Shown: in pieces, positions 25,464-54,474 of the stretch | Position numbering within the stretch: the stretch's first letter is position 1 | How the letters are laid out: every line of letters begins with the position of its first letter | Virus genome (UHGV): UHGV-1351569 | Length of the DNA stretch: 64,000 nt | Reading direction: 5' to 3' (one strand) | DNA from: a virus | The notes under the pieces: generated by a model | Database searches by the model: none | What the model was told of the DNA's origin: nothing | The model's input: only the letters and a program-made list of their open reading frames with translations | Made by a program: the position numbers and the translations under genes

Positions 25464-25780
25464 AACAAGAAACCGGGTCGCTACCGGTAAGTCGTCGGAC
25501 TGATGTTCCCTGTTTAAGGACTGGCATTAATAAATCTTTATGTTTTGTTGATGCCCTCTTACATCACAGCAGAAACGGCGCACCGAATTATCGATTCGAG
25601 GAAATATTTTTGCCGTAAGCCGAGTAGCGTTTTTGACGGAACGTTCGGATATGGTCGAGATATGGCCTTTTAAAAATATTGAGTAGCGTCAACTGCTTAA
25701 TAACCGGGTTCGAATCCCGGCGTTTCGTACAAACACTTGCCTTAGCAGGTGGAACCCCGACAAGGTTGCCGCAAGGCTTA
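25464..25780 (+). ncRNA. small stable RNA region (rnaC/rnaD-like)
   Basis: ORF-free 0.3 kb directly after tRNA-Arg with tRNA-like T-arm CCGGG-TTCGAAT-CCCGG; T4 encodes two stable RNAs at this position. Confidence 0.4.
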
Positions 25781-25807
25781 GCCCCAACCGAAAGGTTGGG
25801 GCTTTTT
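25781..25807 (+). terminator. rho-independent terminator (GCCCCAACC-gaaa-GGTTGGGGC + T5)
   Basis: 9-bp stem, GAAA loop, T-run. Confidence 0.7.
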
Positions 25808-25857: not shown

Positions 25858-26331
25858 ATGAAATCATATGCTCAATTTTTAAATGAAGCGGTGATAAATG
25901 AAGCATCTAGCACTGAAATTCAAGCTGTCGCGAAAGCAGCCATTGCAGCGGGTAAATATTCCTATAAAGATGCTTCTGACGAATCACGATTCCAATTTGC
26001 TCGTGATATGAAAGCCGAAGGATTTACAGGGAATGCAGTTAGTATGGCTTGGAAAAGTTTAGTTGCTACTGGAGCTGCTTTTGCAAAGGCTTCAGGTAAA
26101 CCTGCTCCTAAAGCAGATCCTAAAGTCACACAAGAGAAAAATATTGTTAAAGGAATTATCTCCAAATATGAAGCTATCCTTAAAGAGCTTTTAGTAATCA
26201 AAACTGAAGGCCAAAAACTGGCTCGTGCTTATAGTTTCAAAGATAACCCACATGCTCACTCTCTTGAGTATGTTGAAGACATCCAAAAAATTATTAAAGA
26301 CCGCATTTGGTCTGCTAAACAAATCAAATAA
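25858..26331 (+). CDS. hypothetical protein with capsid-targeting-like N-terminus MKSYAQFLNEA
   Basis: 157-aa Ala/Lys-rich protein; N-terminus resembles internal-protein targeting sequence; late promoter upstream. Confidence 0.5.
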   Translation: MKSYAQFLNEAVINEASSTEIQAVAKAAIAAGKYSYKDASDESRFQFARDMKAEGFTGNAVSMAWKSLVATGAAFAKASGKPAPKADPKVTQEKNIVKGIISKYEAILKELLVIKTEGQKLARAYSFKDNPHAHSLEYVEDIQKIIKDRIWSAKQIK

Positions 26332-26339
26332 CATTCTTA

Positions 26340-26366
26340 GCCCTAGCCGAAAGGTTGGGGCTTTTT
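26340..26366 (+). terminator. rho-independent terminator, near-identical copy of the 25781 hairpin
   Basis: GCCCTAGCC-gaaa-GGTTGGGGC + T5; a second GGCC hairpin follows. Confidence 0.65.
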
Positions 26367-27293: not shown

Positions 27294-27323
27294 TTTACAT
27301 TTCTCAAATAACAGGATATAATT
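27294..27323 (+). promoter_or_regulatory. early promoter
   Basis: GTTTAC ... GGATATAAT. Confidence 0.55.
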
Positions 27324-27363: not shown

Positions 27364-27957
27364 ATGAACACACTGAAGAAAATTGTTGAGTTTATTCGCA
27401 CTAAACTTGGTTCTGCTATGGCTAAAAATTTATCTGTCGAAGAACAGTATACTGCTGCGGCAGCAAAACTACTTGATAAAATTAAAGATCTAAAAACTGC
27501 TTCTGTTAAATCTATTAATGAAGAAAAACGTATTCGTGAACTTATTGTCGAAAAGAATCGACAAGCCGAATCAAAAGAGCGTGAAATTCGTAAACTTCTT
27601 TCCGAAGGTCAAGATGTAACAATGCACGCTAAACTCGGTTTACTATATCGTCGAACAGCTGAGCAGTTGACTACTAAGGCTGACGGTTATGCTGAAATGC
27701 GAATTGAAATCGCCAAGAAAGTAGTTGAGTTAGATGATGCTCGCCAAGAACTTGCAGTTAAATTGGAATATATCCGTGAAACTCGTGCAGCAAATGCCCT
27801 TGGAATTAGTACTGCCGATGATGTAGTTGAAATCGCAGCGCTGACTAAGGTTGATATTGAAGATACCCTTGCTCGAGTTGAAACCTTTAACGGTAATATT
27901 TCCGGGGTTGAAACTACCTCTGCCGATGTTCAGGAATACATTAATTCTCTGAAATAA
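27364..27957 (+). CDS. hypothetical coiled-coil protein (PspA-like features)
   Basis: 197 aa, predicted long helices; RBS AAGGAAA. Confidence 0.45.
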
Positions 27958-27962
27958 TGATA

Positions 27963-27978
27963 AGGGGCTTCGGCCCCT
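27963..27978 (+). terminator. hairpin AGGGGC-ttcg-GCCCCT
   Basis: 6-bp GC stem with UUCG tetraloop; weak U tract. Confidence 0.4.
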
Positions 27979-27998
27979 ATTACTTGGAGTAAATAGGA

Positions 27999-28607
27999 AT
28001 GAAAATGCAAAGTGATTTCAATTCAATGTTTGAAGAGTTCCAAAGACAGGTTGATGTTCCAGACCAATTACTAAATGCTCTTAAACGTATGGCAGAAGGA
28101 CGTAATTATTATTGGGGGTCTTCATATGAAACTGATGAAAGTCTTTCTGGAAGATTTTCTAGAGGTAAAAAGTCTTTAATACGTCCTGGAATACTCATTA
28201 AAAGTATTGAATCAATTCATTCATTGACGTGTGATTTTGATGTTGAATTTACTGATTTCATTTCTCCTGAATGGACAGTTTGTTATTTAAATGACGATTA
28301 TGATTATCTTGGCGTTTATAGTTTAAGTGACGCATGGTTTAAACGTAATTTACAAAAGTCAAATTTGTTCTATATTGATACTACGGTAAAATTTCAGGGA
28401 AAGAAATATTTCTTTACTCTTATAGTTGACTCTGAAACAAAACATGAAAATAAACGTATTCTTAGCAAAAAGAATATCTTGACTATTGTTGATGATCTTT
28501 TTGATAAATTCGTGGAAAATCCCAATTTTGAAAGCGATTTATTATTAGAAAAATTTGTTAAGGAATGTAGAGAATATGTCAAAGCCATCACTATACCTTC
28601 CAAGTAA
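27999..28607 (+). CDS. hypothetical protein (C-terminal FVKECR motif)
   Basis: 202-aa ORF; alternative start at 28005. Confidence 0.5.
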   Translation: MKMQSDFNSMFEEFQRQVDVPDQLLNALKRMAEGRNYYWGSSYETDESLSGRFSRGKKSLIRPGILIKSIESIHSLTCDFDVEFTDFISPEWTVCYLNDDYDYLGVYSLSDAWFKRNLQKSNLFYIDTTVKFQGKKYFFTLIVDSETKHENKRILSKKNILTIVDDLFDKFVENPNFESDLLLEKFVKECREYVKAITIPSK

Positions 28608-28968
28608 ACCTGTGAAGTATGAATTAAAGCGCCGGCTAATTCCTACTGATATATTAATAGGTCCTGTGACAGCTATATCATTTGTAATTCTATTGATTGT
28701 TGGAATGGTTATAGACTTTATGACTGATATTGAATCTGGCGTAATATTTCTGTTAGTATTAATTCTTCCATTTGTAGTTCCATTTTTATTAGTACCTGTA
28801 AATTGGGTAGGATACTGGTATCAAGGAAGGCATTATCGTAAACGCGTACGTGATTGGAAAGCACAGTGTAAAAAGATTAAAAAGGAACATCAGCTTAAAC
28901 TTGCTGCGTATGAATTTGATGAAATTATGAAATTTGTTAAGGAATCACGATGCAAAAGCCAAAACTAA
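28576..28968 (+). CDS. small membrane protein, paralogue family member 1
   Basis: two predicted TM helices; C-terminus ...KFVKESRCKSQN. Confidence 0.5.
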   Translation: MSKPSLYLPSKPVKYELKRRLIPTDILIGPVTAISFVILLIVGMVIDFMTDIESGVIFLLVLILPFVVPFLLVPVNWVGYWYQGRHYRKRVRDWKAQCKKIKKEHQLKLAAYEFDEIMKFVKESRCKSQN

Positions 28969-29312
28969 ATAAAGTCAAATATTCGTTTCCCGAGGCGCTA
29001 TTAATTCTTGCTGTGGCGTTGGCTGCAGCTCTTGCGGGTAGTCTTTTTGGATTGTTAATTGACTGTCTTATTTTAAACATTGACGGCACAGTAAATATAA
29101 TAGAAGTTTGGAGTGAACTTCGTTTTACTATAGCGATTTCATTATTTTCATTCTTTGGTACCATGTTATATTTTCATTATGATAATTTTAAAATAAATTG
29201 GCAAAGAAAAAAGGATTACAAAATACAATTAAAGGAATATAATAACTACATGTCTTATATTGAAAAAGAATCAATGGAAGAGTTTGTGAGTGATTGTAGG
29301 AAAATTAAATGA
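28950..29312 (+). CDS. small membrane protein, paralogue family member 2
   Basis: two predicted TM helices; C-terminus ...EFVSDCRKIK; start overlaps upstream gene end. Confidence 0.55.
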   Translation: MQKPKLNKVKYSFPEALLILAVALAAALAGSLFGLLIDCLILNIDGTVNIIEVWSELRFTIAISLFSFFGTMLYFHYDNFKINWQRKKDYKIQLKEYNNYMSYIEKESMEEFVSDCRKIK

Positions 29313-29797
29313 TTTTAAAAACTCGCTGGTATGATTTAGATGACGGGGATGATGGCATTTCAGTTGATAGAGTTGACTGGAATGGCTGTTCCGAAGATAT
29401 GAAAAATTTGCTGATTAGGGAGTTTAGAATGGGATATCAACCAGTTAAGCCATCTACTGCAACAGATGATAAATTCGTGTGTATTCATAATGGTCGCGCT
29501 AAATTAACGAACGCTGATTGGTTCACAGATAAGATTATGATTCTGTGGTATATTATTAGTTTTCCTGTGACATCATTTGTATTTTGCTTCTTTGGAGAAA
29601 GTCCAGTAGACAAAACGGGAGATTGGATTATTTTAACCATACTTGTTAATATTTTTACAGCAGCAATACTATCAGGAATATGGTACGTGTTCATTGAAAT
29701 GCCATGGCGGTTACGTAGGCAGCAAAAGATTTTTGATGAAAAGAAATATACTCAAAATTTAAATAACTTTATCACCGAATGCAGGAAATTAAAATGA
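29309..29797 (+). CDS. small membrane protein, paralogue family member 3
   Basis: two predicted TM helices; C-terminus ...NFITECRKLK. Confidence 0.55.
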   Translation: MILKTRWYDLDDGDDGISVDRVDWNGCSEDMKNLLIREFRMGYQPVKPSTATDDKFVCIHNGRAKLTNADWFTDKIMILWYIISFPVTSFVFCFFGESPVDKTGDWIILTILVNIFTAAILSGIWYVFIEMPWRLRRQQKIFDEKKYTQNLNNFITECRKLK

Positions 29798-30234
29798 AAA
29801 CATTATCAGCTGGTATTATCTTTATGACAGAAGATAAAGATTTATTCATGGGACGGGTTACTGGTTCTCGTAAGCCTGGAATGATGACACATCGCTGGGA
29901 TATTCCAAAAGGCCGTGTAGAAAATTCTGATTTGAGCGCACTAGATGCAGCACGAAGAGAATGCTTAGAAGAGACCGGTTTTAGCAATTATAATCCAGAC
30001 CTTCTAGAAGACCTAGGTGTATTTAAATATTCTAGTAATAAAGACTTACAGTTATTTTATTATACGATTCCAGTAGAGCATGAGATGTTTAGAAATTGCC
30101 ATTGCGAGTCTTATTTTGAAAATAAAGATGGCGTTATGATTCCAGAGATGGATGCTTTTGCTCTTATTCCTCGTACCCAGTGGCAATATGTGATGGGTCC
30201 TTCACTTTACCGAATAATGAACAACCTCTTTTAA
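29779..30234 (+). CDS. nudE: Nudix hydrolase
   Basis: Nudix box GRVENSDLSALDAARRECLEETGF; immediately upstream of e; alternative RBS-supported start at 29794. Confidence 0.75.
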   Translation: MQEIKMKTLSAGIIFMTEDKDLFMGRVTGSRKPGMMTHRWDIPKGRVENSDLSALDAARRECLEETGFSNYNPDLLEDLGVFKYSSNKDLQLFYYTIPVEHEMFRNCHCESYFENKDGVMIPEMDAFALIPRTQWQYVMGPSLYRIMNNLF

Positions 30235-30765
<531 letters not shown>

Positions 30766-54165: not shown

Positions 54166-54474
54166 GTGAAACAAAACAAGATTGAAGTCTATGGAATTCC
54201 AGATGAAGTAGGTCGTTGTCCTGGATGTCAATCAGTTACAAAACTTTTAAAGGAGCTCAATGCTCCTTTTACTTTCTATAAAGTTCTTACAAATAATGGT
54301 AAGATTGAGTATGATCGTCCACTGATTGTATCTCTTGCTAAACGAGCTGGATTCGCATCTCTTAGCATTCGTTATCCAGTCATTTTCATCAATGATTCTA
54401 GACAAAAGAACATTAAACACTTCAAAGAAACTCTCATTTCACTTGGATATGATAGAGATATCATAGAAGACTAA
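54166..54474 (+). CDS. nrdH: glutaredoxin-like protein NrdH
   Basis: 102 aa, CPGC redox motif, GTG start after AAGGAA. Confidence 0.7.
   Translation: MKQNKIEVYGIPDEVGRCPGCQSVTKLLKELNAPFTFYKVLTNNGKIEYDRPLIVSLAKRAGFASLSIRYPVIFINDSRQKNIKHFKETLISLGYDRDIIED

Follow-up and report, generated by a model that had tools for sequence, protein, structure and literature searches.

A C-terminal peptide tail shared by the e.5, e.4, e.3, and e.2 proteins of a T4-like phage, with codons that also provide the ribosome site of the next gene

Four consecutive, overlapping genes (27999 to 29797) encoding proteins that end in variants of one short peptide were found in a window of 64,000 nucleotides from UHGV virus genome UHGV-1351569. 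Coordinates given without another label are those of this window, and the genes, tails, and intergenic hairpin described below lie on its plus strand. A 3.4-kb portion (27364-30765) aligns with many T4-group phages at 95.9% nucleotide identity in megablast, and on such comparisons the window is a segment of a Tequatrovirus genome. Comparison of its open reading frames (ORFs) with the annotation tables of T4 and phage KMB39 identified the flagged ORFs as orthologues of T4 e.5, e.4, e.3, and e.2, arranged in the same order as in T4 (e.6, e.5, e.4, e.3, e.2, nudE, and the lysozyme gene e). The T4 genes e.2-e.5 (NP_049738-NP_049741) therefore represent the same genes with the same neighbors; they are ∼92-96% identical to Tequatrovirus relatives, and protein homologues of the window's e.2-e.5 genes show 81-93% identity.

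The first of the four genes, e.5 (27999..28607), encodes a lineage-restricted, tail-bearing protein of 202 amino acids that contains no hydrophobic helix and is predicted to be soluble. It overlaps by 32 nucleotides with e.4 (28576..28968; 130 amino acids), which in turn overlaps by 19 nucleotides with e.3 (28950..29312; 120 amino acids). Overlaps of 4 nucleotides join e.3 to e.2 (29309..29797; 162 amino acids) and e.2 to nudE (29794..30234), a Nudix hydrolase gene (Pfam NUDIX, E 9.6e-14) that closes the overlapping run. The e.5, e.4, e.3, and e.2 proteins match phrog_2607, phrog_2604, phrog_2330, and phrog_2203, respectively (E 3e-59 to 6e-110). Scans of Pfam and NCBIfam returned no family for e.2-e.5; precomputed Pfam labels were found for e.4 (PF26873) and e.2 (PF26896), and these labels, like the PHROGs, keep the families apart. 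There are 98 homologues of e.4 and 47 of e.3, and an exhaustive search with e.5 among 1.84e9 proteins gave only 6 matches, none of them informative. In T4, e.2-e.5 are annotated as conserved hypothetical proteins and e.2-e.4 as predicted membrane proteins, and PMC9697503 gives e.2-e.4 the same labels. The record names "sulfurtransferase" (e.3 and e.4) and "DNA primase" and "host specificity protein" (e.6) were rejected, having no support in any family scan.

The C-termini of the four proteins read KFVKECREYVKAITIPSK (e.5), KFVKESRCKSQN (e.4), EFVSDCRKIK (e.3), and NFITECRKLK (e.2), and all end with the pattern L/M-x-x-F-(V/I)-x-(E/D)-(C/S)-R. Six-frame translation of the whole 64 kb revealed five occurrences of F[VIL]x[ED][CS]R, four of which are the ends of e.5, e.4, e.3, and e.2; the fifth, at 54385, is located 23 residues before a stop, and no other real gene end is marked in this way. 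This bears out the initial annotation, which had placed F(V/I)x(E/D)(C/S)R on the three membrane proteins and on the upstream ORF at 27999, in the latter and in the last of the three immediately before the next start codon. The relaxed pattern F[IVL]xxCR occurs in the window at the ends of e.5, e.3, and e.2 only, apart from one unlikely reverse-strand ORF. The probability of the motif arising by chance is ∼7.5e-5 per protein end and ∼3e-17 for four consecutive ends, an estimate made post hoc. The four-gene pattern is real and far from chance.

At all four junctions, a Shine-Dalgarno (SD) site for the next gene is located within the codons of the motif. The tail of e.5 (FVKECR, 28554..28571) contains AAGGAA (28560-28565) as an SD-like site for e.4, and the tail of e.4 (FVKESR, 28933..28950) contains AAGGAA (28939-28944) as the SD site for e.3, with its ATG at 28950. 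At the tail of e.3 (FVSDCR, 29283..29300), AGGAAA (29298-29303) is the SD site for e.2, which starts in an ATGA overlap at 29309; likewise, AGGAAA (29783-29788) at the tail of e.2 (FITECR, 29768..29785) is the SD site for nudE, with an ATGA overlap at 29794. The codons involved differ, being AAG-GAA (K-E) ahead of e.4 and e.3 and AGG-AAA (R-K) ahead of e.2 and nudE. Duplex energies of the sites range from -4.2 to -6.1 kcal/mol, and the spacing to the ATG of e.4 (28576), at 10-11 nucleotides, is longer than at the other three starts. The earlier proposal that the conserved peptide also encodes the ribosome-binding site of the next gene holds at every junction. AAG, a rare Lys codon (21% usage), appears precisely where AAGGA results, which points to a second, weaker constraint, a translational one; judged by these codons, the choice of rare Lys AAG and of Arg AGG in the tail is bent to the SD site of the next gene.

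A junction consensus at the DNA level, also part of the initial annotation, stands for two of the four junctions. The sequence AAATTTGTTAAGGAAT is common to e.5|e.4 and e.4|e.3 only, and it fails at e.3|e.2 and e.2|nudE, which read TTTGTGAGTGATTGTAGG and TTTATCACCGAATGCAGG. The 16-nucleotide identity of the first two junctions is expected from the same peptide and codon bias (P = 0.07), and gene conversion was rejected as its source on that basis. The stop/start overlaps, together with SD sites inside the tail codons of the upstream gene, are what is expected of a coupled gene run and fit translational coupling, and we infer that e.5-e.4-e.3-e.2-nudE are translationally coupled.

Comparison across genera shows that what is conserved is the peptide. 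The codons of the tail vary, with Leu encoded by TTA, CTA, CTT, or TTG, Cys by TGT or TGC, and Arg by AGA, AGG, CGA, CGT, or CGC, and the SD site shifts within the motif: where x-E is read from GAGGAA, Arg is CGT, and where x-E contains no site, Arg-Lys is AGG-AAA. The motif is also kept where the next start is 40 nucleotides away and has its own SD site, as in an e.5-like protein of Dhakavirus, and ahead of gaps of 44-98 nucleotides in p000v, 44RR, and JS10. In the families of e.4 and e.2, no part has lower column entropy than the tail, and in that of e.3 the tail ranks near the minimum; the hairpins and the loop are the most variable parts. The synonymous variation, the moving SD site, and the persistence of the motif without a following start argue for selection at the level of the peptide. 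The comparative record thus describes a motif that is selected as peptide, with codons that additionally serve the ribosome site of the next gene.

For a survey of related phages, a tail was defined as C-terminal L-x-x-F-[IVL]-x-x-C-[RK] with the motif within ∼18 residues of the stop codon; all four window genes conform to this definition, e.4 with Ser at the Cys position. Among 341 ORFs from 11 T4-like loci, 26 carry a C-terminal F[IVL]xxC[RK], where 0.175 would be expected from shuffled proteins. There were just 2 "internal" occurrences in the 11 loci, and these are located 22-25 residues from the protein end. In its distribution, the motif is specific to the C-termini of proteins at this locus. 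The carriers include both soluble and membrane-bound proteins. The gene that follows e.6 in Dhakavirus and Gaprivervirus encodes a soluble protein that is unrelated to e.5 save for ...FI(T/A)ECREYAK... (hhalign E 1.7e-4, tail only). In these two genera, the e.3 orthologues (117 amino acids, belonging to phrog_2330) end in FIKECKS and the e.2 orthologues, which are 31-44% identical to e.2, in FIEECRK; an e.4 orthologue from Gaprivervirus has FIKEVR at its end. Among the proteins encoded 3' of e.6 in Mosigvirus, Kanagawavirus, Marfavirus, Karamvirus, Biquartavirus, RB43, and CC2, both soluble and two-helix ones bear L-x-x-F-[IVL]-x-x-C-R or a near variant, and Karamvirus PG7 contains four consecutive tail-bearing membrane proteins. 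After e.6, Kanagawavirus (E 8.5e-37), Marfavirus, and CC2 have distant positional orthologues of e.5 that are recognized by phrog_2607.

Several further features were observed at the corresponding loci of other genera. A second tandem family, phrog_899, occupies the interval between the e.3 and e.2 positions with three to five small soluble proteins per locus (L015 637-1881; L016 1034-2073; L021 6706-7500; L022 6710-7788 and 8118-8315; L023 6567-7617 and 7940-8137; L024 6302-6828). Most of its members end in W(V/I)SSSxxC directly at the stop and the rest in a shorter ...SSC or in ...SSSxxxC; in many cases, TAAGGAAA and the next ATG come after the stop. Neither the window nor T4 contains this family. 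The e.4 orthologue of Mosigvirus p000v (L021 6560-6607) ends in ...AGATGCAAAAGCC, which corresponds to the first bases of e.3 (ATGCAAAAGCC); no e.3 follows it, the next gene being 99 nucleotides on, and the sequence looks like a remnant of an e.3 that has been lost. Dhakavirus, Gaprivervirus, and Mosigvirus encode a conserved acidic protein of 76-78 amino acids (MSIAIYIKSESCDSY...) between e.2 and nudE, and Karamvirus, in which no e.2 orthologue was identified, encodes it directly before nudE (L015 5492-5728, L016 5498-5734, L018 6492-6728, L021 10336-10572, and L024 9932-10162). It is likewise found in neither the window nor T4.

Hydropathy and charge were used to examine the architecture of the tail-bearing membrane proteins. 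A Kyte-Doolittle scan identified two hydrophobic helices in each of e.4 (residues 26-47 and 55-76; nucleotides 28651-28716 and 28738-28803), e.3 (residues 16-42 and 58-76, the second weaker; nucleotides 28995-29075 and 29121-29177), and e.2 (residues 75-95 and 106-128; nucleotides 29531-29593 and 29624-29692). The loops between the helices are short and acidic, with no more than one Lys or Arg, and the C-terminal tails contain 15 (e.4), 10 (e.3), and 9 (e.2) such residues. The N-termini of e.4 and e.3 are also rich in Lys and Arg, and by the positive-inside rule, both ends of these two proteins are placed in the cytoplasm. The soluble N-terminal domain of e.2 (∼74 residues) has a net acidic charge; the two-helix count puts it in the cytoplasm. 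The three proteins are predicted to be inner-membrane helical hairpins with both termini inside, a short acidic loop in the periplasm, and a basic cytoplasmic tail. Both measures agree with this common architecture, and the two transmembrane helices and basic tail originally read from the ORFs at 28576, 28950, and 29309 are thereby corroborated.

Whether e.4, e.3, and e.2 are paralogues was addressed at several levels of sensitivity. Pairwise BLASTP among the three gave matches in the tail only (E 0.006-0.09). Family alignments including orthologues from other genera were then compared profile to profile with hhalign, which yielded E 3.4e-5 for e.2-e.3 and E 4.3e-5 for e.3-e.4, compared with values of 0.01-0.5 from reversed controls. 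Once realigned, the profiles had confident columns in the last 13-21 residues only. A broader profile of the e.2 C-terminal half and its superfamily aligned with e.3 over 21 tail columns with a score of 36.7 (maximum of 20 column-shuffled decoys, 25.7), and profile comparisons of the tail gave E ∼5e-6 to 2e-4 overall. The e.2 superfamily profile scored 19.7 against e.4, within the decoy range. Iterated jackhmmer searches from e.3 or e.4 recruited block-shuffled decoys and were not accepted as evidence for homology; resemblance over the hairpins thus cannot be separated from composition. The search from the e.2 C-terminal half reached e.3, PG7_117, PG7_112, and Mosig_101 with zero decoys and did not reach e.4. 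The PG7 and Mosigvirus proteins match the C-terminal half of phrog_2203 at E 2e-5 to 1e-3, and the e.4-e.3 pair of P896 gives E 2.7e-6. Beyond the tail, neither hhalign nor jackhmmer found significant similarity over the hairpins of e.4, e.3, and e.2. The three proteins do resemble each other beyond composition, as the initial annotation had supposed, but within the tail; common descent is plausible for the whole proteins and, from these alignments, established for the tail alone.

The serial duplication of a gene-plus-junction unit that had been proposed along with this similarity was not upheld. The tail is also carried by soluble proteins, e.5 among them, so a two-helix gene with its junction is not the unit. 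Orthologues of e.5, e.4, e.3, and e.2 are separate in Mosigvirus, Gaprivervirus, Dhakavirus, and further genera, in many cases with intervening genes, so that any duplication would be old rather than recent and serial. In light of these orthologues, the tight array of the window is an old gene set whose members are separated by further genes in other genera.

Natural rearrangements of the array were identified in close relatives. In L003 (4684-6004), e.2 has been precisely lost by a crossover in the TGYAGGAAA shared by the tails of e.3 and e.2, leaving an e.3 that ends in CRKLK, and e.5 of the same sequence is split by a frameshift. UFV10 (L017 3914-4234) and UFV05 (P0097) contain an in-frame fusion of e.4 residues 1-32 to the C-terminal half of e.2, with the crossover at the shared CCTGTGACA in helix 1 and e.3 gone. 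In T4 itself, e.2 (L001 2153-2461; P0195) is cut by a frameshift after ...FFIK to 102 amino acids, compared with the full-length 162 of the window; its tail is legible in another frame, and the 161-nucleotide "gap" before nudE is the dead remainder. Because of these natural losses, e.2-e.5 are regarded as accessory genes. A strong match to an early-type promoter is located at 27294-27322, 5' of e.6, and the same scan found no comparable early promoter match directly before e.5. In T4, e.2-e.6 are early transcripts and all have been detected as proteins, with e.4 and e.5 appearing early, e.2 and e.6 in the middle period, and e.3 late, according to PMC9697503.

The tail itself is predicted to be a helix of ∼20 residues. 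Its conserved positions, -3 (L/M), 0 (F), +1 (I/V), and +4 (C or a small hydrophobic residue), would occupy one face of the helix, inside an arc of 100 degrees, and a basic residue comes next. The low-confidence AlphaFold2 (AF2) model of e.2, built with 25 close homologues, contains helices at residues 71-95 and 103-161, the second being a single long one that takes in the second membrane helix and runs to the C-terminal end. In the e.4 lineage, the Cys position is occupied by S, V, I, or M, and hydrophobic packing is therefore favored over cysteine chemistry. Several known signals were weighed and set aside: a gp21 protease site (I-x-E), as the Glu is not conserved in other genera; a CaaX-like lipidation box, as the Cys position is variable; and a MotA box, late promoter, or RegB site, as the DNA is unlike those consensus sequences.

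Taken together, these observations may be explained by a shared cytoplasmic docking helix on exchangeable early accessory proteins, the codons of which also carry the ribosome site of the next gene, a reading that we consider about as likely to be right as wrong. Otherwise unrelated, fast-evolving proteins would bind one common partner, or each other, via the tail, and the variable hairpins and soluble bodies would provide the specific activity. Shared C-terminal docking peptides have a precedent in T4, where gp43, gp33, and gp55 bind the gp45 clamp through such tails. The likeness is that of a short hydrophobic C-terminal motif on otherwise unrelated phage proteins; the sequence and the partner differ, and docking is proposed here from sequence. 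Several points weigh against the docking helix. The T4 e.4, e.3, and e.2 proteins accumulate at different times, unlike the members of a simple stoichiometric complex (PMC9697503), and this timing also argues against strict translational coupling. The e.2 model is unreliable, its mean predicted local distance difference test (pLDDT) value being 52.6, so that the helical tail is a prediction only. The PG7 gene directly after e.6 has no tail, the RB43 motif sits 25 residues from the end, and the CC2 tail lacks the Arg. Finally, the link between e.6 and the tails is one of gene order.

Other explanations account for parts of the same evidence. If e.4, e.3, and e.2 arose from a serially duplicated gene-plus-junction unit, with the motif conserved mainly as a ribosome-binding site that maintains tight coupling, their adjacency and common architecture, the SD site in the motif codons of all four junctions, and the use of AAG exactly where AAGGA arises would follow; the decoy-free jackhmmer search that joined the e.2 C-terminal half to e.3 and to the PG7 and Mosigvirus hairpin proteins, and the four-gene run of PG7, also favor it. 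We nevertheless consider this history unlikely, as the significant similarity is confined to the tail, e.2 and e.4 are not significantly similar, and decoys equal real sequences over the hairpins, while the tail is found on soluble proteins, each gene has separate orthologues in several genera, the SD site moves within the motif as the peptide stays, and the motif is kept where no start follows. A somewhat less probable alternative is an enzyme-read signal: the tail would be either a tag for proteolysis by FtsH, Lon, or Clp or a site at which Cys or Arg is modified, and would thereby govern how long the protein lasts or how active it is. Its strictly C-terminal position, the nearly invariant Cys-Arg of the e.2, e.3, and e.5 lineages, and the accumulation of the proteins at different times despite early cotranscription are consistent with such a signal, but members of the e.4 lineage carry S, V, I, or M instead of Cys, and the 1 to 15 variable residues that follow the motif leave no fixed terminal tag.

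The rearrangements described above raise the further question of whether the junction is a recombination linker for the swapping, insertion, and deletion of cassettes, with the peptide as a by-product. Promoter-early stem-loops (PeSLs) are documented to mediate modular shuffling in the hyperplastic regions of T4-type genomes (PMC2839356, PMC4122927); the window genes lie in the same type of region, and gene-border repeats are again the end points of natural deletions, as in the loss of e.2 from L003 inside TGYAGGAAA; the e.4-e.2 fusion of UFV05 and UFV10 arose at the shared CCTGTGACA in helix 1. A PeSL, however, is intergenic promoter-terminator DNA, whereas the tail motif is an in-frame peptide with varying codons, and an intergenic early promoter and stem-loop conserved as DNA were not found for the motif across junctions and genera. 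The DNA is unconserved except at two junctions, the identity of which is that expected from peptide and codon bias; the codons differ across genera where the peptide is kept; and the motif is always in frame within coding sequence. A linker of this kind is thus quite improbable. The likelihood of a chance or compositional resemblance among AT-rich small ORFs is negligible: nothing beyond the low complexity of membrane proteins speaks for it, and it is refuted by the motif counts, with four of five matches in 64 kb at consecutive gene ends and the excess over expectation in the 11 loci, and contradicted by the scores of the tail profiles relative to reversed controls and decoys.

As to a common partner of the tails, the strongest candidate is e.6 (27364..27957), named on the basis of gene order only. 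This gene is directly 5' of e.5 and encodes a conserved coiled-coil protein of 197 amino acids, represented by 1107 records across T4-like phages. The tail-bearing genes are located 3' of e.6, and immediately so in most loci sampled. An AF2 model of e.6 from its single sequence predicts a long helical hairpin with pLDDT >90 over residues 40-130, and the ten best Foldseek matches of this model in the PDB were without exception Vipp1, with ESCRT-III proteins ranking next. When a profile of e.6 homologues was searched against PDB sequences, Synechocystis Vipp1 was the second-best match, collinear from residue 1, with a weak E of 1.5. Comparison of e.6 with a four-sequence PspA profile by hhalign gave a score of 26.1 (E 0.004; maximum of 30 decoys, 21.1), and the same comparison with Escherichia coli PspA alone was not significant. 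The odds that e.6 is kin to PspA/Vipp1 are roughly even.

PspA-type proteins are kept at the membrane by small membrane proteins, namely, PspB and PspC for PspA and LiaI for LiaH, and e.6 is for this reason the best candidate partner. Like these anchors, e.2-e.4 are small inner-membrane proteins with a C-terminal helix predicted here to be cytoplasmic, and they are encoded beside a gene for a coiled-coil protein with weak resemblance to PspA. Unlike the anchors, the tail is shared with soluble proteins, and the PspA nature of e.6 is only putative; no match of e.2-e.5 to the PspC, PspB, or LiaI families was found in Pfam and NCBIfam at E <= 0.1-1. That e.6 is a phage PspA/Vipp1 membrane remodeler of the ESCRT-III superfamily, with the L-x-x-F-[IV]-x-x-C-R tail as its docking peptide, is a speculative proposal that we think is probably wrong. 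If it were true, the locus would be a Psp-like membrane maintenance module composed of the conserved hub e.6 and changing adaptors (e.4, e.3, e.2, and soluble proteins such as e.5), which, early in infection, would target this hub to various membrane sites or insults, and the phage would bring its own membrane stress machinery.

Three other features of the region were observed. A hairpin, GGGGC-TTCG-GCCCC (27961..27980), was read from the sequence between e.6 and e.5; it is palindromic, and the hairpin scan listed it on the minus strand only. Two near-identical terminator hairpins at 25780-25803 and 26339-26362 (AGCCCCAACCGAAAGGTTGGGGCT and AGCCCTAGCCGAAAGGTTGGGGCT), each followed by a T run, bracket one gene (25859-26331) just past the tRNA cluster, in a layout like that of a PeSL-bounded cassette. 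The T4 record places the nudE start (151 amino acids) at an ATG inside the e.2 tail codons (GA-ATG-CAG; window 29779-29797) that has no SD site. The ATG at 29794, which has AGGA 7 nucleotides upstream and yields a 146-amino-acid protein with an ATGA overlap, is the start used by other records.

As small, early, nonessential inner-membrane proteins, e.2-e.4 are also reminiscent of Imm, Sp, rI, and the holin partners, which function in superinfection exclusion and lysis control, and no family match of e.2-e.5 to this group was found in Pfam, NCBIfam, or PHROGs. The e.2-e.5 genes were already known; in the searchable literature, neither the gene names nor the UniProt accessions led to anything on their function or on a shared C-terminal motif, and we did not find the tail, its spread, or the link with e.6 described there. 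T4 is among the best-studied viruses, yet e.2-e.6 are among its many genes without a known function. Through the shared tail, four T4 genes join at least 26 proteins from other T4-like genera in a single functional group that is linked, by position, to e.6. The tail offers a clean example of a peptide constraint and a ribosome site constraint acting on the same codons, and with it, a block of orphan genes becomes a testable system that may consist of one motif, one partner, and one module.

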